A DNA stretch of 64,000 bases from Candidatus Multivoradales bacterium (GCA_965248925.1 CBDFLE010000006.1:2368001-2432000), one strand, 5' to 3'; shown: positions 39,678 to 55,993, counted from the stretch's first letter. The notes: generated by a model not told the origin, from the sequence alone. Numbers and translations: made by a program.

Positions 39678-42600
39678 TCAAGGGGTAGCCTCGCCCGTGG
39701 CGCTCACCCGCAGTCGCGCACCGGCCGAATAAGCGGCGAATTCGGGCGCATACATCGACTGCACCTCGGCGGGGCCAACCCTGAAGGTGCCGGCATGAGT
39801 GGCTCGCAGTCGGTAGCGCAAGACCACCTCGCCGACCGGCAACCGCTCGAAGAAGAAGTTGGTAGCGCTGTCGCGCGGCTCCTCGTAATACCCCACACCC
39901 GTCTGCCAACGGTATCCCGAGCGTGGATTCTCGGGCTCGAATCCCGCCGCCCGCGGATCGCGCAGATGGACATACTCGGCGGCATGCTGGGTACGCAGCA
40001 CCAGCTCGACTTGCAGCTGGTCGCCGACCGCGATCTCGGCCGCGGCGACGAGCGGCTCGATCAACCACTCATGCCCATCGTGCCAACGGCGGAAGTAGCG
40101 ACGCTCGACGGCAAAGAAATCCCCCACCGCGGTTTCTGGCAAGCGTTCGCTAGAGAAATGCCAAGTCGCAGACGCGAACATCAAACCCGGGGTCTTCTTA
40201 GCCACCTCGATGCGGGCCATGGAAGGCTCGATCGCGGCTCCTTCGACCACCAACTGACGTCCTTTGCCGGTATAGCTATCGGGCTCGAAGACGAAGCGCC
40301 GGCGGCGTGAGCCGATTCGCACCACCGCTTCCTCGCGCACCGCCAGGCTCTGTTCGTCGGCCAAGTAGTGGGCCAGGGCGTAGACTACTTCGGCGGTGGC
40401 ACGGGTCGATTTCCAATGATTGAGCTTCTTGTTCAACATCAGCCATTGGGCTAGGCCGTGGCGGCGTGAGTCTTCGGGATCGATCTCCATCAGCGCGCGC
40501 AGGGCGAAAGCATGGCTCTCGATGGTGTCGTTGTACCACAGCCAAGAACGCTCCTCCGGCGCCCAATAAGTACCGAGTCGCGGATCGCTCTTGGCCGAAT
40601 CCATCAGACTGTCGAAAAGCAGCCGCGCATCCTGCTGCCGTCCCTGGCGATGGAGGGCCAAGGCCAGGTACGCCTTCAACCGCGGCGCCGCTTGGCGCCA
40701 GTGCTGGAAGCCGTGGTCGAGTAAGGCCCGCCGATCGTCATCGCTGAAGACTCCGTCGGTCCACGACGCGTCGGGATAGCTCGACAGCACGTAAGCCAGG
40801 TAGGCGCCAGTTGGCCAAGGTAAATTCTCGGCAAGACGCTCATCCCGGTCCAGGCGATAGCTCTGCTCGACATAGCGCCAGGCGCGGGCAACCAGCTGCC
40901 GCGGCACCTCGACGTCGTGTTCCAATGCCCGCGCTAGACCGTCGAGCAAATAGAGGGTGATGTAGGGCGAAGGCGGCCCGCCTGGCCACCAAGGGAAGCC
41001 GCCAGCGGCGGTCTGGACGCGCTCTAGTTCAGCCAAAGAAGTATCGCGCTGGGCGCGAGCGATCACCGGGTCCAACACCTTGATCAAGCCCTCGGCGGCG
41101 GCCTCGCCACCAGCTGCCGCCACCCTCCAGGGGGTTTCTTCGAGCAGCAACTGGCGGTTGGGATCCTCCTGCCGCCAAGCTTCCAGCCGCGTCTCGCGCT
41201 TCGCAAGATTCTCTGCCAGGCGGCTGATCGCCGGATATTGATCGAAGAGGGTGGCCACAATCCCGGTCGACAAGAAGCGATTCAGGGTTTGCTCGACACA
41301 CTCATAGGGGTATTCGACCAAGTAAGGCAAGGCGGCTAGTACGCCGTAGAAGAGCTGCCCGTCCAGGGTGACCACTAACTGCTCGTCGATCCGCGTCGGA
41401 TCGTCTTGGCGCGCCAAGTCGGCAAACTCCAACCGCTCGACCGCGTCACCCGACAGGGCGACGAAGCGACTTTGGGTCAAGTGCAAGCGGCTAGGCAGCA
41501 CCGCCAACGGCCGCACCTCGCCATCGCCCAGCGCACCCGCTCGAGCCATAACCCGCACCGCAAGGGGACCAATCCTTGGCGGTACGGTAAGCGCAAAGCG
41601 CAGCTCGCTGCCAGCGCCAGGTTCAACCGCGAAGGTCCGCCGCGCTTGCGCCGCGGTGAGGCCAAATTCCTCGAGCAAGCTGACCTCGGTCCGAGGATCA
41701 AAGAGCTCGAAGGTCAGCTCGCCGGCCAAGGGTCGGTCGCCAGCATTGTTGACCACAACCTCGATGGCGGTCTGGTCGCCGGCACGCAGGAAGCGCGGCA
41801 AGTAGGGCCGAACCAACAGATCCTTGACCGTCCGCGTCTCAGCCTGCGCTCGGCCCGAAGAAAACTCGCGGGTCAATGCGTGCGCCCAAACCCGCCACTC
41901 GGTCACCGAGTCCGGCACGGTGAACTGCAAAGCAACTCCTCCTTCCTCATCGGTCAGCAGATGGGGAAACCAGAAGGCGGTTTCGGAGAAATCACTGCGC
42001 AGTTCTGGCGCCGCGGTCGGCGGCGGCGCGGCGGGAGGGCGGGCCGATAAATCGGCCATTTCCGCTTGCACAACGACCGGAGTTTGGGCGCTGACCACCA
42101 CGGCCTCCGCCATCTCCTGCCCTTCTTGGGCCATCGCAGAAGAGCCGAAGACCTTCATTACCTGCCTTCCACGACGCCCGAAACCACCGATCGGATAGCT
42201 GTCGAAGAATTTCAGTCGATCGCCCTGAAAACTTGGAAAAGGAGGCAAATCGATCCACCCCTCGGCCCTATTCCACACCTGAGATGCATGGCCCAAAGAG
42301 CTACGAAAACCCAGACCACCGCCGTACACCGGATATACCGATCGCGGATCATGGGGGCGATGCTGAGCGAAGAGATCCAGACTGCGATCGTACATGTAGG
42401 CCAAGATCTCGGCCTCCCCAGCTCCTACCGGCTGTCCATCCTGGCGCCGCACCTCAAGTCGCCAGGTTTCGGCGCCGCCCGGCCGCAGGCGGTCGCGGAA
42501 GGTAGAGAAAGCCAGCTGCAAGTGACGGTTATCCCACGGCACGGCGATCTGCCGACTCAACGTCATCATTTGATGATCGCGCAGCGCTCGCAGCGTAACG

Positions 42601-45600
42601 CTGAACCCACCGCGCAGGCTGTCGTCGATAGATAGCTCTACAATTGCAGAGTCGTCGCCCGCCCGCAGCCGGCGGCGCTCGATCAGCGTTCCGTTACGCG
42701 CGATTTCGAGTTCGAGCGACAGGCCGTCCAGGGCCGAGAAGGCGAACACACGCAGCGTCTGGCCTACCCGCACCGTGCCTTCGTCGACCCCCAACAGCAG
42801 GGGCAAGGCCAGAGGCGTTGAGCGGTCGGCGACGACCACCAGTTCGCGCGCCACCTCGCAACGCTGGCCCCAGGCGTCGAGAGTCGAGTAGCGCAAGCGG
42901 TAGGCGCCCGGCGCCAAGTCACCAAGTTCGATCTCGGCCCGCCCACGCGCATCGTGGTTGAGTTCGCCCCGTGCCAACTCGGCACCATCCGGCCAACCGT
43001 GCAGCACCGCCTCGGGCTGGTAGGTAGGCTGCCAGCGAGGCCGCAGGAGATCGCCGGGGGTGTGAAACCAGTGCTCAACCGCGGCGCCGTGGGTTGGCGT
43101 AAAGGGCTGTTCGGCCGGCAACAGCGCTTCCTCTGGCTGCTGCAAACGCAGCAGTCGCCATTCCCCGCTGCCGGCTCGCGGCACCCTTTCGAGATCACGG
43201 CGCAAGACGCTCAGCGCCAGCGAGCGGCCGGCAAAGTGTGGGCTCGGACCTTCGATCTGCGCTTCGATGGCAATCAGGCCAAGGCGGAAAGCACGTTCTG
43301 CCGAGCGAGTCTCGCCACCTTCGTCGGTGACCTCGGCACTCAGCCGGTAGCGGTAGGAAAGCGCTTGATCTTCACCTTGCTCGTCTGCCTGCGGCAGAAA
43401 GCGCACCTCGAACCGACCCGCCGCGCTGAGTTCCGCGCGACCGGCGGCAACGGTCTGGGCCGGACCGCGCGGCCGGGGATTCCAGCCCCGCCACCAGGGC
43501 GGATAGACCGGCTCGCGCACCACCCGCCAATCGACCTTGCCAGCGCTGACTGGCAGGCCGAAGTAGTAGCGCGCGGAGCCTTCGAGCAGCGCTTCACGGT
43601 TGAGCCGCAAAGCACCGGGCGGATCGTCGATGGCGACCTCGAACGTGGGCCGCTTGTACTCCTCGACTTGCAGCGTGACCCAGCCGCCCAGGTCGGTGCC
43701 GAGGCTCCAGCTACCGAGCAAGCGACCCGCGGGCAAAGCAAACTCACCAGCGGCCGACCCAAAGGAGTTGGTCTCGGCCTCCACCTGGGCGATTTCCTCG
43801 CCATTGGCATCGCGCAGAACAACCTGCAAAGTGCGTTCGGGCAGCACTTCGAAACGCCCCGCCTCGCCGTTGCCGCCGTAGGCCACCACTTTCCACTTCA
43901 GCTGCTGGCCCGGCCGGTAGGCGCTGCGGTCGGTGTAGATCAGAACGTCTGTGCGTTGCTGCTGACCTACCCCCCGGTGCTGGCGGGGATAGGCATCGAG
44001 AAAGGCCACCTCGCGGCCACGCCGAGCCAGCAAGAACAGCTGGCCGCCGCCTCGCATCTCGGGCTGCGGCAGGATCAGAGAGCCGTCGCGGCGACTGCTC
44101 TGCTGCGCCAGTAAGCGCGGCGACCGCTGCCAGTCCATGACATAGAGCCCCACCTCGACGCCACCCACAGGCTCGCCGCTGGCTCCCGAACGCACCGCCA
44201 CCTCGGTGCGCCTCTCGGCGGTCGAAGTGCTCAACACCAGATCGCCAATGAAGATTTGAACGGCGGTCAATTGGTTGCGCTTGACCTCGAAATCGGCCCG
44301 AGCGGAGGCGACGACCAAGTAGGCGCCGGGCTCTTCGAAGGGAGGGTTGACGTAGGTGTGGTGGCGGCGCAAATCGAGGCTTTGAGGCAACTCGACGGAC
44401 CACTCGTGGATCGGCTGGCGCTTGGCAACCCACTGCCGCACCCGCTCGCCGCGGGGTAGCAGAGTACCCCGAGCATCGGCCAGCACACGATCCATGTCGA
44501 GCGCATAGGCGCGAAAAAATAGCCGTTCCAGATTGGCGTGGCCAAGCCGCATGGAGCGCTTATCCAATCCGTCCGAGAGCATCGCTTCGAGCTGGTAGGA
44601 CGGGGCGGTCAGCGACGCCATCAGATTCGCACAGCGGTGCCCACCCGGGCTCTGGGGATGCGCCTGCTGGCCTGCGCGGGCCACTTCGAGAGCCTGGACT
44701 AGGCTGTCCGGGGCGTTGCCGGAGCGGATCAACTCCGCCAGCTCCGCCTGACCCACCGCCCACCAGGGCAGGTGTCTACCGCTGCGCTTCAGGGCGGCTC
44801 GCAGATCAGCCTCGAGCAGCTGACGATCGGGCTGGCTGTCGAGATGAGGCCGCAGTCGCCGATGGCGCTCGAGGCGCGCCTCAAGAGCTGCTTCGGGCCG
44901 TTCGGCAGCAGCGTGCCAGGCCTCCAGATCACCCAAGATGGTGGCAACTTCGAGAAGTGGATGGGGGGCCGGCTCGGCCACCTTCGCGGTCGCTTGCGGC
45001 AACGAGCCAGCGGCGGCCAACAGGATCTTCCGGTCAAGACTGAAGACTCCATTGGCGGCAGCCGGACTCCATAATGAGGCGTCGGCGAGCAGCTCCACCC
45101 ACAGGTAGGTGAGGACATCGCGCAGCGTCCCTCGAATGCGCGGCGGATAGTCGTTGGACACCAGATACTCGGCCATTCGGCCCACCGGCCCGTCACCCCA
45201 CTGCTGGCGCCTGAGCCAGACCTTTTGGTAGCGGCGCTGGGCCGCGGTGACGATTTGCTCTTGGGTCCAGGTAGCTAGATCGATCTCCCCATCACCGGCC
45301 ACCCGCTCGCGCTGAGCAATCTCCCAGGAATAAGCGTGAAAGTAGTTCAGCAAGCTGCGGCCGACGAAGAGGTCCAGGGCTGACCGCTCGGGGTCGGCTT
45401 GCGGCCAAGACTCGGTGAGCAGCTGGCCCACCGCCTGCTCATAACCCCCCAACGAGGCGCGCAGCTGCGCCCCACGCACCAACGCCCGGCCCCAGGAACT
45501 TTGGTCACCGGCCGCGCGAGCCTTATCGAGCAGCCGCTCCACCCGCTCCAGCGCCGCCGCCATCTTCTGCTCAGAGATCAGCTGGTCGACCTGCTGCCAA

Positions 45601-45773
45601 TCGGCTTCGTACATCGAGCTTTCCCCCTGGCTCCGCGGACGGTGATCGAGCGGTTGACTTGCTTGGCTGACAGGTGCGGACTGGCAAGCAGCGAACAGCA
45701 GCCAAATCAGCCACCAACACCACCGCACGACGATCAACTCAGAACCTGACGAACGCACTCTCGATGATTTCAT
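39678..45773 (-). CDS. alpha-2-macroglobulin family (lipo)protein
   Basis: YTDRSAYRPG (MG2), FSETAFWFPHL, thioester YECVEQ, WKSTRATA, SMYAPE; lipobox-like FAAC; start uncertain. Confidence 0.92.
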   Translation of the reverse strand: MKSSRVRSSGSELIVVRWCWWLIWLLFAACQSAPVSQASQPLDHRPRSQGESSMYEADWQQVDQLISEQKMAAALERVERLLDKARAAGDQSSWGRALVRGAQLRASLGGYEQAVGQLLTESWPQADPERSALDLFVGRSLLNYFHAYSWEIAQRERVAGDGEIDLATWTQEQIVTAAQRRYQKVWLRRQQWGDGPVGRMAEYLVSNDYPPRIRGTLRDVLTYLWVELLADASLWSPAAANGVFSLDRKILLAAAGSLPQATAKVAEPAPHPLLEVATILGDLEAWHAAAERPEAALEARLERHRRLRPHLDSQPDRQLLEADLRAALKRSGRHLPWWAVGQAELAELIRSGNAPDSLVQALEVARAGQQAHPQSPGGHRCANLMASLTAPSYQLEAMLSDGLDKRSMRLGHANLERLFFRAYALDMDRVLADARGTLLPRGERVRQWVAKRQPIHEWSVELPQSLDLRRHHTYVNPPFEEPGAYLVVASARADFEVKRNQLTAVQIFIGDLVLSTSTAERRTEVAVRSGASGEPVGGVEVGLYVMDWQRSPRLLAQQSSRRDGSLILPQPEMRGGGQLFLLARRGREVAFLDAYPRQHRGVGQQQRTDVLIYTDRSAYRPGQQLKWKVVAYGGNGEAGRFEVLPERTLQVVLRDANGEEIAQVEAETNSFGSAAGEFALPAGRLLGSWSLGTDLGGWVTLQVEEYKRPTFEVAIDDPPGALRLNREALLEGSARYYFGLPVSAGKVDWRVVREPVYPPWWRGWNPRPRGPAQTVAAGRAELSAAGRFEVRFLPQADEQGEDQALSYRYRLSAEVTDEGGETRSAERAFRLGLIAIEAQIEGPSPHFAGRSLALSVLRRDLERVPRAGSGEWRLLRLQQPEEALLPAEQPFTPTHGAAVEHWFHTPGDLLRPRWQPTYQPEAVLHGWPDGAELARGELNHDARGRAEIELGDLAPGAYRLRYSTLDAWGQRCEVARELVVVADRSTPLALPLLLGVDEGTVRVGQTLRVFAFSALDGLSLELEIARNGTLIERRRLRAGDDSAIVELSIDDSLRGGFSVTLRALRDHQMMTLSRQIAVPWDNRHLQLAFSTFRDRLRPGGAETWRLEVRRQDGQPVGAGEAEILAYMYDRSLDLFAQHRPHDPRSVYPVYGGGLGFRSSLGHASQVWNRAEGWIDLPPFPSFQGDRLKFFDSYPIGGFGRRGRQVMKVFGSSAMAQEGQEMAEAVVVSAQTPVVVQAEMADLSARPPAAPPPTAAPELRSDFSETAFWFPHLLTDEEGGVALQFTVPDSVTEWRVWAHALTREFSSGRAQAETRTVKDLLVRPYLPRFLRAGDQTAIEVVVNNAGDRPLAGELTFELFDPRTEVSLLEEFGLTAAQARRTFAVEPGAGSELRFALTVPPRIGPLAVRVMARAGALGDGEVRPLAVLPSRLHLTQSRFVALSGDAVERLEFADLARQDDPTRIDEQLVVTLDGQLFYGVLAALPYLVEYPYECVEQTLNRFLSTGIVATLFDQYPAISRLAENLAKRETRLEAWRQEDPNRQLLLEETPWRVAAAGGEAAAEGLIKVLDPVIARAQRDTSLAELERVQTAAGGFPWWPGGPPSPYITLYLLDGLARALEHDVEVPRQLVARAWRYVEQSYRLDRDERLAENLPWPTGAYLAYVLSSYPDASWTDGVFSDDDRRALLDHGFQHWRQAAPRLKAYLALALHRQGRQQDARLLFDSLMDSAKSDPRLGTYWAPEERSWLWYNDTIESHAFALRALMEIDPEDSRRHGLAQWLMLNKKLNHWKSTRATAEVVYALAHYLADEQSLAVREEAVVRIGSRRRRFVFEPDSYTGKGRQLVVEGAAIEPSMARIEVAKKTPGLMFASATWHFSSERLPETAVGDFFAVERRYFRRWHDGHEWLIEPLVAAAEIAVGDQLQVELVLRTQHAAEYVHLRDPRAAGFEPENPRSGYRWQTGVGYYEEPRDSATNFFFERLPVGEVVLRYRLRATHAGTFRVGPAEVQSMYAPEFAAYSAGARLRVSATGEATP

Positions 45774-46022
45774 GACCACGAGTCTATCGGCTGCATGCTG
45801 CCCCGGCTGGAGGAAGGTGATTCTGAGCCAGCCAGCGTAAACTTCCATGCCGCGATATTCAACGGCGTAAGCGGGCATCGGCGGCAATTACGCCTGTGGG
45901 TGACCTGCTGAATGGAAGATCAGCGTAAGTACCCGTTTACAGAAGAGGGTGGCTGCTGCTCAGGCACTCGCCGACATCGACACCCGCTCTGGAGCAAAGA
46001 AGCCAGCTTTGTCTTCACGATT

Positions 46023-48668: not shown

Positions 48669-49340
48669 ATGCCGAGCCATCACCTCCCTCTTGCCCTACC
48701 GGTTCTTCTACTCACCGCCCTGCTCACCCTGCCATCCCCGACCCAGGCTCTCGACCTGACCTTCGACAGCCACGCGGCCACCGCCGCCGGTCTGGCCGCC
48801 GACACCCCGGTGGCCTGGCTGTGGACCGGGCGGGTGGTCGAGGGCTATTCCACCCGCGTCGAACTCGAAACCCGCGCCGGCCTGGCCGACCGCTCTGGGG
48901 CGGTGCGGCTCCAGAGTGAGCGCCCCTTGCCCGAGCAGTCGATCTGGGCATTGGCTGACCTCCGTAGCGGCGACCTGCTGCTCGACTGGCCAGCGGCCTC
49001 GCAAGCCAGTCTGCTGGAACTACCCGCCGTGGACCTAGAGCCCGACCGCCTGACCCTCGCCGGCCGCCGTTTCCAGGCCCTGCTGATCCGCCCCGGAGTC
49101 GGCGCTTGGACAGCCCTGGTGACCGATGGCGGCGACGCCGATGCCGACGGCGAGCAGAATGCCAGCGTCACCGTGGCGGTGGAGCACTTGCTGCCGCTGA
49201 ATGAGGAGACCCCCGCCGCCGCCGAGCGCTTGAAACCGGGTGATCGCCTGTTGCTGGCCGACCCCGACCACCTGCGGCTGTGGGTCGCCGCCATCGATCG
49301 CGAGTCGTTCAAGGACCCATCGCCCGACACTTCACGCTGA
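48669..49340 (+). CDS. secreted hypothetical protein, upstream of RHS
   Basis: Sec signal ending TQA; DGGDADADGEQN acidic loop; stops 17 bp before the RHS start. Confidence 0.75.
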   Translation: MPSHHLPLALPVLLLTALLTLPSPTQALDLTFDSHAATAAGLAADTPVAWLWTGRVVEGYSTRVELETRAGLADRSGAVRLQSERPLPEQSIWALADLRSGDLLLDWPAASQASLLELPAVDLEPDRLTLAGRRFQALLIRPGVGAWTALVTDGGDADADGEQNASVTVAVEHLLPLNEETPAAAERLKPGDRLLLADPDHLRLWVAAIDRESFKDPSPDTSR

Positions 49341-49357
49341 GCCCCGAGGAAAAGACT

Positions 49358-52193
49358 ATGAAAACCACCCCCCAGCCCTTCCGTCTGTTCTCCGCCGGCT
49401 GCCTGCCGGCTTTGATTCTGGCCCTGCTGCCAGTGCTCTTCCTCTTGTTCCCCGCGATCTCTCATGGCGCGCAGCAGCACCCCACCAGCGAGCGCGGCTT
49501 CGCCCCCGAGAAAGCCTACGCCTTTGGCGATATCGATCACGTAAGCCTCTACAACGGCGCCCTCACCCTGACCCTCCCCATCGGCCCCACCTACCGGGTG
49601 GGTCGCGGCCTGTCCTACTCGCTGACCTTGGTCTACAACTCCAAATTGTGGGATTGGGAGATCGAGTGCGGCACGGGTAACTGCGAGTCGGTGGCCTGGG
49701 CCAACCGCGATAGCAACGGTGGCTTGGGTTGGCAGCTTTCCCTCGGAAAACTAGTACCGCCGCTGACCCCGCCGCGCAACGACACGCCTCTCTGGCTGTT
49801 CGTCACAAGCGATGGCAGCGAGCACTTTTTTTACGACACGCTGGCCAACGAAGCCCCGGTGGCCAACGTCTACTACAGCCGCGACAGCACCTACTTGCGG
49901 CTGAAGAAGGCGGGTAGCCAGTGGAAGCTGGAGGACGGCGGCGGAGTGACCCACACCTTCAACGCCAACGGCGACCTGCGGCGGCAAGAGGACGCCTTCG
50001 GCAACTACCTGACCATCGGCTATGGCGCCAACACCTGGGATATCGCCGACAGCACCGGCCGCACCCACACCTTGACCTTCGCCAACAAGCTGCTCGACGG
50101 CGCCCAGGTACCGCATCTCATCCGCGCCGACTTGGCGGCCTTCGGCGGTCAGCGGGCGCTGTGGAGTTTCACCTACCAGCAAGCCACCGTCGACCGCCCC
50201 GCCCCATCGCCGAACGTGGGTGTCTACAGTCCGCCTGGGGCGCACTTCCTGACCAAGATTTCGCTGCCGCACGGCCAGAGCTACAACATGGGACCGGTGG
50301 CCCAGCGCTACCACTTGTCGCGGCTTGAGCACACTCGCAATGTCGGTCAGATCAAGGCCGTCGATCTACCCACCGGCGGCCAAGTGGCTTGGGAGTACAA
50401 GAACTACAATTTCTACACGTTGGGCGACCCGCCAATCGGCACTGGGCATCCGCGCCGTGAGTTGCAGCTTTCCTCCGGCGTCAAGTCCCGGCGCCTGATC
50501 GACACCACCGGCGGCGAGCTGGGCAAGTGGACCTACACCCAGGTACTGACCACCGAGGGCTTCGATCCAGCGGTCCAGTCGATCACCACGGTCAAGGCAC
50601 CTTCGGGACAAAGGTCGATCCACTACTTCTCGACCTACCAAGGTGGCCCCACCAGTGTCACCACCGCCAATGAACTCGATCTGGGGCTGCCCTTCACGCC
50701 GAAGAACCCGGTGGGTGAGCGGCGCCTGTCGCAGCGGGTACTCTCGGCCGGTGGCACCGACCTTCGCCGGGTCGAGGTGGGCTATCAACGCGACGCCGCC
50801 GCGCCGCTGGGTGAGGTGCATATCCGTGGTCAGCTCAACCCCGCGGCGCGCGATCGTAATCAACGAATGTTCGTTACCCGTACGATCTACAAGGACGACG
50901 GCAACCGGTACGCCGAGGACCGCATGTCGGGCTATGACGGCGTGGGCCACTATCGGCGCACGGTGCGCAAGGACAACTTCGACGGGGTGAAGACGCGCAA
51001 TCAGTTCACCCGCTACCATCCCGGCGGCATGCCCAACACCGGCCAAGCGTGGATCCTCGGCACCTACACTTACCAGACCACCGTCGACACCGGCGGCGCC
51101 ACCTTGCGCCGTGATACCTGCTTCGATTCCGCGACTGGCTTTTTGAAAGTGGAGCGGCTGCGCCAAGCCAACCCGGCGCCGAGTTCGGACGACGTGGTGC
51201 GCGCGATGAGCTACGTCCGCGATGCCGCGAGCAAGATCGAAACCGTGGTCGAGCGCCATTTCGGCGGAGATACGGGCGCCGTGGCGGCGCCCGGCGACGT
51301 CTGCGCGCTGAATCCGGCGCACAACACCAGCCACGTTGCCCTGGAGCACAAGTGGCAGTACGGCTCTGGCCGCTCAAGCCAATACTTGAAACTCGATGGC
51401 AGCCGCTTCCCCTTCTTCGAAGTGCTCCAGACGGTGGACCGGAAGACCGGCCTGATCAGTGCGAGCACCGACCGCGCGGCCTTAGTCACCGCTCTCAAGT
51501 ACGACTTTCTTGGCCGGCTAACCGAGTCCAAACCCTCCGCCGGCCACGGCGCCTGGACGCTCTACGCCTACACCAACACCTTCAACTCGGCCGGCCCCAA
51601 GGTCGAGATCCGTCAAATCGACCGCGATACCAGCGCCGCGTTGGCCAAGCGCGAGCTACGTTTCGACGGCATCGGCCGGCTGATCTTGGAGCGTCAGCGC
51701 CAGCCTAGCGGGCTGTGGGCCAAACGGGTAACCGCGCCTACAGCGGCGAAGGCTGGACCCAGAGCGAGTCCGAGTGGTACCGCTCCGCGGGCACCGTCCA
51801 CCGCACTTATTTCGACCACGATGCCTTTGGCCGGGTGACCAAGATCGTGCCGCCCGACGGCGCTACCCACGATGTGCGAGTGACCTACCTCGGCGACCGG
51901 CGAGTAGTGCGCCGGGGAAGGGTGGGCACTTCAGTAGCTGGCAACGGCAGCGTCAACCAAAGCCAGTTTGCCACCGAAGAGATCTACGATGCCTACGGCC
52001 GCCTGGTGCGGGTATCCGAGCCCGCGGGCGGCCTGCTGGCGACCTACTTCTACGACTCCGGCGATCGGTTGAAACAGGCTAATCTGAAGGGCGGAAGTAC
52101 CACCCAGATTCGCACCTTCGAGTACGATGGTCGAGGCTTTCTCCTCTCCGAGAATCACCCCGAGGCACAGCAGATCAACTACAGCAACTACGA
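49358..52193 (+). pseudogene. RHS/YD-repeat protein, frameshifted at ~51734 and interrupted by a group II intron
   Basis: Signal peptide, GGLGWQLSLG, YD repeats (YDFLGRL, FDGIGRL, YDAYGRL, YDSGDRL, YDGRGFL); extra GC in ACCGCGCCTAC; no core end or toxin domain in the window. Confidence 0.88.
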
Positions 52194-54455
52194 GTGCGGC
52201 AAGAAGCCGCTTTTCTATATGAAAGGAGTTGTCCTCCGAAATGCAATTATTTGATTTCCCATCCCATGAGCGAGGACCATCTGTACCGCCAGATGAACCT
52301 ACGGCCCTGAATAAAGAGCGGGCCAGACAATGCGCGAAGCACCTCGGTGCGGTCTTGACACCGCGAGGCGTCAAGGCTCCTGGGAGCCCCGATCCGGGAT
52401 AGCGTCTGGTAGTAGCCATGGCAAACACATGTGAATCAGCGCAGGGATCGTTATGATGAAGGGCCAAAGGGGCTGACAGGCCTGGCCAAACGGCAAGGTG
52501 GCAGGGGCCACGTTCTCGTAGTCGTGGCCCGCGGTCGTCGATCACCCGGTCTAAAGCTGATGCCTAAAGCTACGTACTCCGAAAGCGGAACTTGTAAACC
52601 TGGTATGTCCGCCTACGAAGGTGAGAGTCCGATCTTTCCCGCCCCACCGCGTCAGCGAACGGCCCGGGATCGTTCCGACTCCTATCGTCAACCAGGCAGG
52701 CTGACCGCAAGGGAGGCTATTGGATGTGCCGGAGTAGGACGCTGGAAGAAGCGAATGCCGGTCTGTAATGGATCGGATACGGGTTCGGAATTTGCCCGGC
52801 GCGAAAGCGAGCCAACGTCCAGCGGGTGTTTCTTTGTAAGAGCGCTTGGAGAACCGATTCTGCGGAGGAATGGCGATGGATGACCCGAAGAAATTCGCGG
52901 TCGGCGCACCTTCGGGCGGTGTCGAAAACTGGTCGGATATCGACTGGCGGTGGACGTACAAAACCGTTGAGCGGCTACAAGTTCGTATTGCGAAGGCAGC
53001 TCGGAAAGAACGCTGGGGGAAGGTGCGCTCCCTCCAGCGAATTTTGGTTCAGTCGCTGCCTGCGAAGCGGCTGGCGGTTCGTCGGGTGACGACGAACCAG
53101 GGAAAGCGCACGCCGGGAATCGACGGTGTTCTCTGGAACACCTCTCGGCAGAAGATGCAGGCCGTGGACGAGCTGAAGCGGCGAGGCTATCAGCCTCAGC
53201 CACTACGGCGAATCCACATTCCAAAACGCAACGGCGGAAAACGTCCGCTGAGTATCCCGTGTATGCACGATCGAGCGATGCAAGCTCTTCATCTGCTGGC
53301 TCTCGAGCCAGTAGCCGAGCAAAGGGCGGATCCAAATTCCTATGGATTCCGCAAAGCCCGTTCGATCCAAGATGCCCATGTGCGATGCCACATGGTATTG
53401 GCTAAGGGCAACGCAGCTGAATGGGTGCTCGACGCGGACATCGAAGCCTGTTTTGATCAAATCAGCCATCAATGGTTACTAGACCATATCCCGATGGATA
53501 GAAGTCTACTCCGGAAATGGCTGAAGGCCGGATATTTCGAAGGTGAGATGTTCCACCCCACTGAGCAAGGCACTCCCCAAGGAGGAATCCTCTCGCCAAC
53601 CTTGGCGAATATGACCTTGGACGGTTTAGAAGCTCATGTCCTTTCGGCGGTTCCACGCCCAAAAGGGAAGGAGCCCGCGGCCAAGGTCCATGTCATTCGG
53701 TACGCAGACGATCTCGTGGCCACGGCCAGAACCAGGGAACTCCTGGAAGAGAACGTCGTCCCCGCGGTTACCGCCTTTCTCAAAGAACGCGGTCTGAGAC
53801 TGTCCGAAAAGAAGTCCCAGATCGTGCATATCGACGACGGTTTCGATTTCCTTGGAGCCAATGTACGTAAGTACAACGGCAAGCTCCTGATGCGCCCAAT
53901 GCGGGCCAACGTCAAGGATCTCATCCAAAGAACGCGGAGCCTCATTCGTCGGAACTTCGGAACCAAGACGGAAAATCTACTGCACCAGCTCAACCGCGTC
54001 CTCCGCGGCTGGGCTCACCAGTTCCGTCATCTCGTTGCCTCGAAGACCTTCCAGAATATCGACCACTTCATCTTCGGACAGCTCTGGAGATGGGCGCGAA
54101 GGCGCCACAACAACAAAGGGCTACGATGGATCAAGACGCGATACTTTTCTCGCGTGGGAAACGCCAGGTGGCTACTCAATGCCAAGCAAATCCGAGCTGG
54201 AAGACGTCCACAGACGATCGTTCAGTTTCGAACGAGCAGCCTGAGAATCCGTCGGCACATCAAAGTTCGGGCCGAAGCTAGGTATCACGATGCCCGTTAC
54301 GCGGAGTACTTCAAAGAACGCTGGAGGCAGCGTCGCCGCCGCGAGCATTGGGACCGCCAAAGAACGAGGCCTGGGCAACTGGAGCTGTCATTCTGAACCC
54401 ACAAGCCCGACAAGCCGGGTCGGCAAGCAGCCGGCCTTTGGAATGCCTGAGCCGA
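52194..54455 (+). mobile_element. group II intron (3' ribozyme end truncated or degenerate)
   Basis: GTGCG 5' end; EBS1 TCGTAGT (52516-52522) in a hairpin loop complementary to exon ACTACGA (52187-52193); RT ORF; domain V begins GAGCCG at 54449 but does not complete. Confidence 0.9.
52876..54396 (+). CDS. ltrA: group II intron reverse transcriptase/maturase, no endonuclease domain
   Basis: RT_N (WSDIDW..LQVRIAKA..TPGIDG), PQGGILSPTLAN, YADD, GFDFLG, X domain RGWAHQF; no HNH motif. Confidence 0.95.
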   Translation: MDDPKKFAVGAPSGGVENWSDIDWRWTYKTVERLQVRIAKAARKERWGKVRSLQRILVQSLPAKRLAVRRVTTNQGKRTPGIDGVLWNTSRQKMQAVDELKRRGYQPQPLRRIHIPKRNGGKRPLSIPCMHDRAMQALHLLALEPVAEQRADPNSYGFRKARSIQDAHVRCHMVLAKGNAAEWVLDADIEACFDQISHQWLLDHIPMDRSLLRKWLKAGYFEGEMFHPTEQGTPQGGILSPTLANMTLDGLEAHVLSAVPRPKGKEPAAKVHVIRYADDLVATARTRELLEENVVPAVTAFLKERGLRLSEKKSQIVHIDDGFDFLGANVRKYNGKLLMRPMRANVKDLIQRTRSLIRRNFGTKTENLLHQLNRVLRGWAHQFRHLVASKTFQNIDHFIFGQLWRWARRRHNNKGLRWIKTRYFSRVGNARWLLNAKQIRAGRRPQTIVQFRTSSLRIRRHIKVRAEARYHDARYAEYFKERWRQRRRREHWDRQRTRPGQLELSF

Positions 54456-54524
54456 TTTAGGGTGCCAGCCTCGTCGCACTGCCGTAGTTTCAATGGTTTA
54501 CGCCACTCATTTGCCTGGACAAGT

Positions 54525-55145
54525 TGAGGTGCTCCTCGGATTCTGGTCCAGTCAGAATGAGAGGCTGGGCATGAGGAAGAGCCGATGCGCAAAAGCCGAT
54601 TTAGGGAAGAGCAGATCAACCATAGGCGCGTCTATCGGCTCTTCAAAGCCCTGGGGCTCGCTGTGCGGCGCAAGAAGCGAGCGGGTAGCACAAGGCGAAT
54701 CGGCATGCCGTGAGTCGTACCTCAGCTAGCCAATGAGCTGTGGTCGGTGGACTTCATCAGTGACAATTTGGCGGGCGGACGCAATTTCCGAGTTCTCGAC
54801 GTTGTGGACGATACAACGAGAGTGTGTGTGGCTATCGAGGTCGATTCGTCCCTGTCGGGTCATCGTGTAGCACGGGTGCTTGATCACTTTGCCGAGAGTC
54901 GTGGATACCCTCACAGGATAGTCGTGAACAACGGCCCGAAGTTCAACAGCAGAGCCTTGGAGGAGTGGGCCTACGAACACGCCGTCACCTTGCTGTTTGT
55001 TCGGCCAGGCAAGCCCATCGAAAGCTGTATTGCAGAGAGCCTCAATGGCCGCCAACGGGATGGGTGTCTCACACCTGCACCAGTTTACGAACTTGGCAGA
55101 CGCTGGCCGCAAGATCGAGCACTACCGACCGTCCCGGCCTGACCA
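54525..55145 (+). mobile_element. IS3-family relic, internally deleted
   Basis: TG-start left end; orfA start MRKSRFREEQI fused to orfB NHRRVYRL..WSVDF..NNGPKF..PGKP..ESLNG, with a stop codon and degenerate DDE residues. Confidence 0.85.
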
Positions 55146-55160
55146 CCGATCTGGATCATG

Positions 55161-55461
55161 GACCTCTCGGGCGGCCGACCGGGTCCAAACCTGCCGCCGG
55201 CCACGGTGCTCAGGTGATTTTCGCCTACAGCAACGCCGGTGTCTCTGGCGGTCCCAGGGTGGACATCCGCCAAGTCGATCGCAACACCACCGCCTCATTG
55301 GCTAAGCGTCTGCTACGACTCGATGGCAGCGGCCGCTCGATCCTCGAGCATCAGCGGCATCCCGGCGCGCTGCGAGCACACCGCCTGACCGCCCACAGCG
55401 GCGAAGGCTCGGCTCGGAGCGTGTCCGAGTGGTTCCGCGAGGGGGCGGACACCGTCCATCG
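55161..55461 (+). pseudogene. orphan diverged RHS fragment
   Basis: GRPTGSKPAAGHGA..VDIRQVDRNTTASLAKR..TAHSGEG..SEWFR..TVHR is paralogous to the RHS region at ~51503-51804. Confidence 0.85.
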
Positions 55462-55993
55462 CCCATCTTTGAGCGCTCCAGCCCTGGCGAACCCAAAAAA
55501 AAGCGGGACCAGACTCTCATCTGATCCCGGTTCAACTCGCATTTAAGCGAGCTTTCTAGCAACCGTCAGTGCCTATCGAGAAAGATCACAATGTCTTTCT
55601 GCAAATCATCCTTCCCAATTACTTTTCCGCTGGAACTCCAGCGAGGTATGAGACGCGACGAAAGCCTGTTTGCCCTTGGCTCCTTGTTTGCCGAAGTTGG
55701 GGGGACCGCAACAAACTTAAAAGGGGGGACAGCCATCAGGCACACCGCCAAAGAATCTGGCCCAGCGCAGCAGGTCTGGAAGCCGTCGCCGCTCTCTCAA
55801 CAGGGCTCTATCTTAGAAAAGGTGCTATGACCAGGTGAATCGGACAGAACACCATCCGCATGTCGGACATCTTCCCGGCAGCATAGGAAACATCCTACTT
55901 ATTACACATTCCGAATAAGACAGAGTTCACTCCCCGCTTCCCCACAGCTCAGGTGGCCAGGAAGTTCAGCGAACTGATCGAGTTGCGGGTCGA

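Follow-up and report, generated by a model that had tools for sequence, protein, structure and literature searches.

A group II intron in the genome of Candidatus Multivoradales bacterium (GCA_965248925.1; genome G000) is inserted within the codons of a Tyr-Asp (YD) motif of an RHS/YD-repeat gene, and the hairpin loop through which it recognises its 5′ exon is an exact complement of those codons. The intron lies in a 64,000-nucleotide stretch of this genome (C6:2368001–2432000; hereafter the window, in which all positions are counted unless C5 or C6 is named). Its lineage is small, with three members known, whose reverse transcriptases (RTs) are 75–85% identical and whose exon-binding site 1 (EBS1) has the core TCGTA, which reads TAC-GA. 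The intron behaves like a site-specific element whose core recognition sequence happens to be a YD codon; it does not land on any YD.

The 5′ junction falls between positions 52193 and 52194 of the + strand, in the sequence ATC AAC TAC AGC AAC TAC GA | GTGCGGCAAGAAGCC, as the initial annotation had placed it (AAC-TAC-GA|GTGCG). The host frame at the junction reads ...INYSNYD and lies within an RHS_repeat protein. The exon ends AAC TAC GA (52186–52193), and the intron begins with GTGCG (52194–52198), which agrees with the consensus GUGYG and is kept in relatives. The intron-binding site 1 (IBS1), ACTACGA (52187–52193), runs from the last base of the Asn codon through the Tyr codon to the second base of the Asp codon. 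Its counterpart is found in a hairpin whose stem pairs GGGCCACG (52505–52512) with CGTGGCCC (52523–52530), as supported by direct reading, covariation and the centroid fold, and whose loop, read directly, is TTCTCGTAGT (52513–52522). Within the loop, TCGTAGT (52516–52522) is the reverse complement of ACTACGA at 52187–52193, forming seven of seven base pairs, so that the perfect complementarity claimed from the sequence alone could be confirmed and assigned coordinates. The heptamer occurs three times on the + strand of the window, and five times on both strands against 2.3 expected; at this rarity, its chance placement in a 10-nt loop 320 nt downstream of the junction is unlikely.

The identity of the loop is further established by covariation among related introns. 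A domain I profile was made from close and intermediate relatives, and 115 matches to it were aligned, 81 of them starting at position 5 or earlier. Across 51 non-redundant related introns, the loop paired with the terminal bases of the 5′ exon of the same intron over a mean of 5.04 contiguous bp, compared with 3.30 ± 0.18 bp when exons were shuffled among the introns (maximum 3.90 in 2000 shuffles), and pairing reached at least 5 bp in 31 of the 51. Examples of loop and exon pairs include AACGACAA with TTGTTGTT, AAATGAC with GTCATTT and AGATTGC with GCAATCT. Compensatory changes were observed in all six predicted pairs of the hairpin stem (42 aligned of 76 distinct hairpin segments). Since the loop covaries with the terminal bases of the 5′ exon across the 51 introns, the loop at 52513–52522 is EBS1, and it forms 7 bp with the last seven exon bases. 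The covariation comparison proposed in the initial annotation, together with the 7-bp pairing, thereby upheld its reading that EBS1 recognises the Tyr-Asp codons.

Close relatives of the intron use the same codons. In an RT-based scan of genome contigs from species representatives, the best 80 of 466 confirmed relatives were compared, and only one of these, L005, exceeded 55% RT identity. L005 lies on a contig of a metagenome-assembled genome (MAG), and its RT is 84.6% identical to that of the window intron; the contig ends at the last base of the intron, and the MAG holds one intron copy. Its 5′ exon is open over 427 codons, which encode classic YD repeats and end TCC TAC AGC TAC GA|. A further relative, L117, was found on a metagenome contig by a pattern built on the 5′ end of the intron. 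It is a complete, 2,334-nt intron with an RT that is 75.3% identical, and its exons, CAC TAC GAA TAC GA| and |T GAT TTT GAC AAC ATC ACC, encode YEYD-DFDNIT in frame. The EBS1 loop of both L005 and L117 is TTCTCGTAAT, and the shared core TCGTA pairs with TACGA. At EBS1 position 6, the A of these two introns is mismatched with their exons, while the G of the window intron pairs with C at −6. Counting the three copies in the present genome, L005 and L117, all five close copies found follow TAC-GA of YD codons in RHS-type genes, and they occupy three or four different sites. The collection of homologs and tabulation of 5′ exons suggested at the outset therefore did not reveal copies lying mostly outside RHS genes.

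How far this amounts to specialisation on YD codons can be judged from the sites that are used and those that are not. An alternative explanation holds that the intron retrohomes in the ordinary way into one extended homing site in the RHS repeat, inherited by its relatives, with no YD specialisation as such. Consistent with this, among the 52 ACTACGA sites in the RHS-like DNA of the genome only those at the position here termed site A are occupied, and none of the 11 YD codons spelled TACGA in an intact paralog carries an intron; the paralog's own site A reads CAC-GA, not YD. However, the L005 host belongs to a different RHS family: its protein is approximately 25% identical to the window RHS family and 55–59% identical to a second RHS family, which indicates that at least two non-homologous YD sites have been used. 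Site B, described below, is a third. Furthermore, the same TAC-GA cut is seen throughout, and the EBS1 core is conserved while EBS1 positions 6–7 and EBS2 differ. A single inherited homing site is thus the less probable account, albeit one of some weight. The proposal in the initial annotation that the intron specialises on repeated YD codons stands as far as the five close copies are concerned, but does not extend to YD codons in general, as 11 TACGA codons in a paralog are intron-free and only site A, and once site B, has been used.

Several observations count against the overall account or limit it. Two of the five paralogous sites that read AGCAACTACGA in the genome are empty (C6:3283780, where the next base is T, and C6:4916855, where it is C). 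All 13 second-family sites homologous to the L005 insertion site are likewise empty; most read ACC TAC ACC TAC GA|T GA, and one reads AACTACGA. Sites with a better predicted IBS2 and IBS1 that lie outside RHS genes, such as TCATCACCACTACGA at C5:990705, are also empty. Only three lineages are known, and as the L117 exons are too short for their site to be placed, L117 and L005 may go back to a single ancestral site. By GC skew, the sense strand lies on the presumed leading-strand template in two of the three genomic copies and on the lagging-strand template in one; with three copies, and with the origin and terminus placed from skew only, this mixed orientation is uninformative and lends no support to the lagging-strand bias described for such introns. 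Finally, neither the EBS2 sequence of the window intron (TGATGA), at the usual −13 to −8 of site A, nor that of L005 (TGAAG) has a convincing IBS2 partner. Target choice is therefore not fully explained by the pairings at site A.

The position of EBS2 itself is supported by a covariation scan of the intron class, which located it at intron nt 258–263; 45 of 56 introns pair there, compared with 26.1 expected (z = 6.6), and the corresponding sequence in the window is TGATGA at 52454–52459 on the + strand. In L117, EBS2 (CGTAG) pairs over 5 bp with CTACG, which lies at the first of the two Tyr codons in YEYD. A covariation scan of 13 sequences did not find EBS2. The segment GGTAGT (52408–52413) was considered as EBS2 and rejected, being conserved in relatives with unrelated exons; it was also displaced by the scan that placed EBS2 at nt 258–263.

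More distant relatives, with domain I parts 66–79% or RTs 46–54% identical, use unrelated targets. Sister introns from related genomes of the same family or order (L100, L096, L097, L092, L102, L111 and L088) share the domain I architecture, the EBS1 hairpin and the EBS2 position, and their domain I parts are 66–79% identical to that of the window intron; their targets are (C)CGTT or CGTTA, and their exons are not YD codons. The sister loci examined in genomes G033, G052 and G048 of the same order (L100, L096, L097, L090, L088, L109, L111, L092 and L102) contain several copies per genome, located approximately 10–15 nt downstream of a GC-rich palindromic sequence, for example GGCGCCGC...CAGCTC, and their EBS1 (AACGG or TAACG) covaries with the target.

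Pattern searches recovered few additional candidates. In genome contigs, the 5′-end pattern matched three stretches: the L005 contig, L116 and L115. L116, which has the same sequence as L086, is a truncated non-YD intron, and L115, from Kribbella, was dropped as a chance match in an apparent ATPase-type coding sequence. The same pattern matched one stretch, L117, in metagenome contigs and none in viral contigs, and a second pattern, built on the conserved core, found the L005 contig only. In a sample of 401 genomes of the phylum, with two candidates scored per genome, the only match was in the intron's own genome, and all three candidates from a protein search with the exon plus read-through peptide were proteins of that genome.

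Three copies of the intron are present in the genome, 100% identical by BLAST over their shared lengths (1928–2261 nt), and all are defective. The window copy is a fragment on the + strand (52194–54454) that corresponds to nt 1–2261 of 2330, and the copy in C5 matches only to intron nt 1928. The remaining copy, hereafter copy c (C6:4642655–4648295), is complete but split at nt 626–630 by an IS21-family element, which encodes IstA/IstB, has inverted ends TGTTAGCGGCT and is flanked by a 5-bp duplication, CCAGC. Copy c gives the true 3′ end of the intron, with domain V, GAGCCGTATGCGGGGAAACTCGCACGTACGGTTC, and domain VI ending CCTACTCGAC, and thus an intron length of 2,330 nt. At the C5 copy (C5:1072589–1072693, locus L002), approximately 105 nt of unassigned sequence, CGGTCGAAAAGGTGCCAGG, are followed by the left end of an IS21-family element, the same element that splits copy c; a similar end, GGTGCCAGGCACATTAT, forms a loose contig end at window position 51996.

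Comparison of occupied and empty sites bears on how these copies arose. The last 400 nt of the window 5′ exon match seven paralogous places in the genome. Three of the five sites that read AGCAACTACGA are occupied, the intron always following AGCAACTACGA, and both sites that read AACCACGA are empty. Between the three occupied 5′ flanks, 6–12 of 198 nt are different, and the positions that vary include −12 and −16 relative to the junction. At the empty paralog C6:3283780, the 198-nt flank shows no difference (0/198) from that of the window copy. The introns are identical although their flanks have diverged, and no exon tract is co-converted with them; this agrees with separate insertions and not with duplication of an intron-bearing segment. 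In three diverged RHS paralogs the intron has entered at site A, and the distribution of copies is consistent with spread by retromobility, as the initial annotation had suggested for RHS paralogs.

The opposing explanation is that duplication or gene conversion of intron-bearing RHS segments, and not intron mobility, produced the three copies. RHS loci recombine readily, approximately 132 kb of RHS-like DNA is available in this genome, and the 198-nt identity between the window exon and another paralog demonstrates that conversion among paralogs does occur. Against this, the introns are identical over 1928–2261 nt while their exons are 3–6% different, to within 12 and 16 nt of the junction, and the paralog that shares the identical flank has no intron. 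Copying of whole segments is therefore considered very improbable as the source of the three copies.

Copy c is also the only copy with a 3′ exon, and this exon reveals a rearrangement. It reads C GGC TTG AAC CGA ATC, giving ...NYD|GLNRIKVFED in frame, and is unlike TTCTCGCGGC, the sequence that follows site A in intact paralogs. Instead, it starts exactly at a second YD site, site B (CAT TAC ACC TAC GA|C GGC TTG AAC). In four intact or near-intact paralogs site B follows site A at a distance of exactly 705 nt, and it is also present in two orphan modules. Copy c is thus composed of 5′ exon A, intron and 3′ exon B, and carries an in-frame deletion of 235 codons whose two ends fall on the splice sites. 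In the simplest account, an intron copy at A would have recombined with one at B, or an insertion at B would have been resolved against an A copy. Neither a B-type 5′ junction nor an A-type 3′ junction occurs in the assembly, a point that counts against such an origin, and the two-copy precursor has accordingly been inferred rather than seen.

It might be argued that the A–intron–B arrangement is unrelated to the intron and arose from an earlier deletion between YD repeats or from an assembler mis-join through the identical copies. Short homologies (CTACGA) at which a deletion could occur are indeed found in the repeats, assembly across identical 2.3-kb repeats is difficult, and neither precursor junction is present. 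Yet both end points of the deletion coincide to the base with intron splice sites, and no intron-free paralog with the same A–B deletion was found in the genome. A mis-join would moreover be expected to leave partner junctions, and these were found neither in the assembly nor among sample contig ends, which covered the window stretch only. An origin independent of the intron appears improbable on this evidence. The general form of the intron-dependent account, in which phase-matched intron copies at different YD codons act as portable recombination sites that delete or swap RHS blocks in frame and in repeat register, is nevertheless put forward as a tentative and somewhat unlikely idea. The shuffling of RHS genes raised in the initial annotation thus agrees with one chimeric copy, but the precursor junctions it would call for are absent from the assembly.

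The interval C6:4641766–4660023 (locus L121 and beyond), in which copy c lies, contains a main RHS gene, an orphan module from residue 1112 and an intron-bearing module from residue 918. Four transposase types, IS21, Transposase_29, DDE_Tnp_1 and DDE_Tnp_1_4, are interspersed at this RHS locus.

The body of the window copy has the features expected of a group II intron: the GTGCG end, the domain I fold, an RT open reading frame (ORF) in domain IV and the EBS1–IBS1 pairing. A conserved domain I substructure (Rfam RF02012, group-II-D1D4-7) is matched at 52277–52405 on the + strand with 64 bits, against a gathering score of 34. The RT-bearing ORF spans 52846–54396, and from the ATG at 52870 it encodes a 508-residue reverse transcriptase/maturase (52870–54396, + strand) with the Pfam domains RVT_N, RVT_1 and GIIM. 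No HNH family in Pfam matches the RT at E ≤ 0.01, and Cys is absent from its last 100 residues, which bears out the earlier statement that the RT is without an endonuclease domain. Among proteins of solved structure, the closest to it is chain C of 6ME0 ("Maturase reverse transcriptase"), with residues 12–495 aligned at E 1.2e-149; 6ME0 is the ribonucleoprotein (RNP) of the cyanobacterial group IIB intron T.el4h from Thermosynechococcus. The element is very probably a mobile, endonuclease-less group II intron with an RT closest to a solved IIB-type maturase. A sample contig covering 52819–54121, the only contig listed over the RT region, has roughly three-copy depth and carries three base differences from the window (A>G at 52928, T>G at 53053 and G>C at 53679). 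The three copies in the assembly are reported as identical to each other; the differences could reflect the assembly consensus or population variation.

The window copy retains the 5′ 97% of the intron and has lost the last 69 nt, and with them the whole of domain VI and the greater part of domain V. Only the first six bases of domain V, GAGCCG (54449–54454, + strand), remain, at the point where copy c continues TATGCGGGGAAAC, and identity to the full copy stops at 54454. The Rfam model RF00029 for domains V and VI has no match in the window even at E ≤ 10, while it is present in copy c (66.5 bits), L005 (61.2 bits) and L117 (56.6 bits). The window copy is predicted to be dead, able neither to splice nor to move. 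The 3′ losses coincide with insertion sequence (IS) elements, which lie beside two copies and inside the third, and the 3′ ends were probably lost later through IS-associated deletions. Loss of the 3′ terminus is a route of decay of bacterial introns, as described in passages of PMC4496777.

Contigs assembled from public sequencing runs agree with these boundaries. They branch at 52193 towards the empty paralog (TTCTCGCGG), at 52819/52823, which are the IS21 ends, at 54121, which is the end of the C5 copy, and at 54454, where the branch continues TATGCGGGG; contigs of 4.6–14.7 kb extend from 54425 through the truncation. The runs may be the source of the assembly itself, and the contigs are consequently not independent support.

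Beyond the truncation point, 70 nt with no other match in the genome by blastn (54455–54524, + strand) separate the intron stump from a decayed IS3-family element (54525–55142, + strand; Pfam and blastn). The latter consists of a short transposase start and an rve integrase-core remnant (Pfam, E 7e-15 at 54747–55142), and is 85–92% identical to C6:4116904–4117965. A 13-nt direct repeat, AGCCGATTTAGGG, occurs at 54450–54462 and 54594–54606. Its first copy overlaps the cut domain V, its AGCCG being intron sequence, and its second falls within the beginning of the IS3-type transposase ORF (MRKSRFREEQI...). The repeat suggests a microhomology-mediated junction, but the 131 nt that separate its two copies do not fit a simple microhomology model. 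Further downstream, a diverged RHS fragment (55115–55501, + strand; tblastn and blastn) is 54% identical to residues 739–866 of the intact paralog; it is not a continuation of the interrupted gene.

The host gene of the window copy is a pseudogene. Its N-terminal part (49244–51736, + strand, frame 2) corresponds to residues 1–831 of the intact paralog at 88.6% identity by tblastn, and contains a weak RHS_repeat match in Pfam that falls below the curated cutoff. Residues 831–983 follow in frame 1 (51736–52193, + strand; tblastn, 91.7% identity) and form the site A exon, ending ...INYSNY-D(GA|), and an RHS_repeat match (PF05593, E 1.2e-12) covers 51715–52254. With these two parts in different frames, the gene is frameshifted and stops at the intron. 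The intact paralog used as reference is a protein of 1671 residues with 16 YD motifs, 11 of them spelled TACGA.

The RHS complement of the genome is extensive. The approximately 132 kb of RHS-like DNA, defined by similarity to one RHS protein, fall into 62 intervals, and their coding strand contains 372 TACGA and 52 ACTACGA, which correspond to 4.6% and 5.6% of the genome totals, respectively. One such interval, C6:2439988–2456982, lies just past the right end of the window. The second RHS family, detected with the L005 exon, has at least 13 copies in the genome. Upstream of the window RHS gene, on the − strand at 39678–45887, is a gene for a 2069-residue bacterial alpha-2-macroglobulin (MG2, A2M, bMG10), and cytochrome oxidase genes are found downstream from about 57000.

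A mechanism for these events can be proposed from what is described for endonuclease-less introns. The intron, which is inserted in the sense orientation after TAC-GA, would have entered by reverse splicing of its RNA into DNA, guided mainly by EBS1. Its target may be transiently single-stranded DNA, with reverse transcription primed by host replication intermediates; reverse splicing of endonuclease-less introns at replication forks is described in passages of PMC8914252 and PMC5010178. IS-associated deletions would subsequently remove 3′ ends. Recombination involving intron copies at two YD codons might yield a product such as copy c, and its deletion would be in frame because the intron always lies at the same codon phase.

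Among characterised introns, RmInt1 of Sinorhizobium meliloti can be regarded as the closest functional analogue. Structurally RmInt1 is of another class, and the D domain, too, is missing from its RT; unlike RmInt1, the window intron has its nearest solved RT in chain C of 6ME0. The 6ME0 intron RNP resembles the window intron in having an RT ORF in domain IV and both EBS1 and EBS2 in domain I, but the targets of the two are unrelated. As described in parts of PMC4496777 and PMC8914252, RmInt1 similarly has an RT without an endonuclease domain and increases in number within a single genome by homing to a multi-copy target, which it reads by EBS/IBS pairing and also by protein contacts, and according to the former source its copies decay by loss of the 3′ terminus. 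In contrast to the repeat-protein codon motif seen here, the natural target of RmInt1 is an insertion sequence, ISRm2011-2.

The target described here appears not to have been reported. The usual descriptions of bacterial group II introns place them in other mobile DNA or at intergenic sites. A literature search found no paper joining "group II intron" and "YD repeat", and for "group II intron" with "Rhs", judged mostly from titles, nothing among the papers listed looked relevant; one paper that joined group II introns with Rhs and retrohoming was unrelated. A chloroplast rhs gene interrupted by a 267-bp intron is mentioned in a portion of PMC4487195. Taken together, the findings describe a known type of element in an unreported target niche, with one suggestive case of rearrangement.

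An intron lineage whose guide sequence recognises the best-conserved codon pair of a large gene family that recombines would find targets in unusually rich supply, represented in the present genome by the RHS-like DNA, and in return it could remodel genes of a toxin family. If phase-matched copies do serve as recombination sites in the proposed way, bacteria would have a parallel to intron-mediated exon shuffling in a polymorphic-toxin family, and no product of this process would have been seen before copy c, with its loss of 705 nt between sites A and B. The occupied and empty sites of this one genome and the three diverged EBS1/EBS2 variants offer a compact natural system for the study of specificity drift, and the same system could serve to test whether introns cause in-frame rearrangements of repeats in bacteria.

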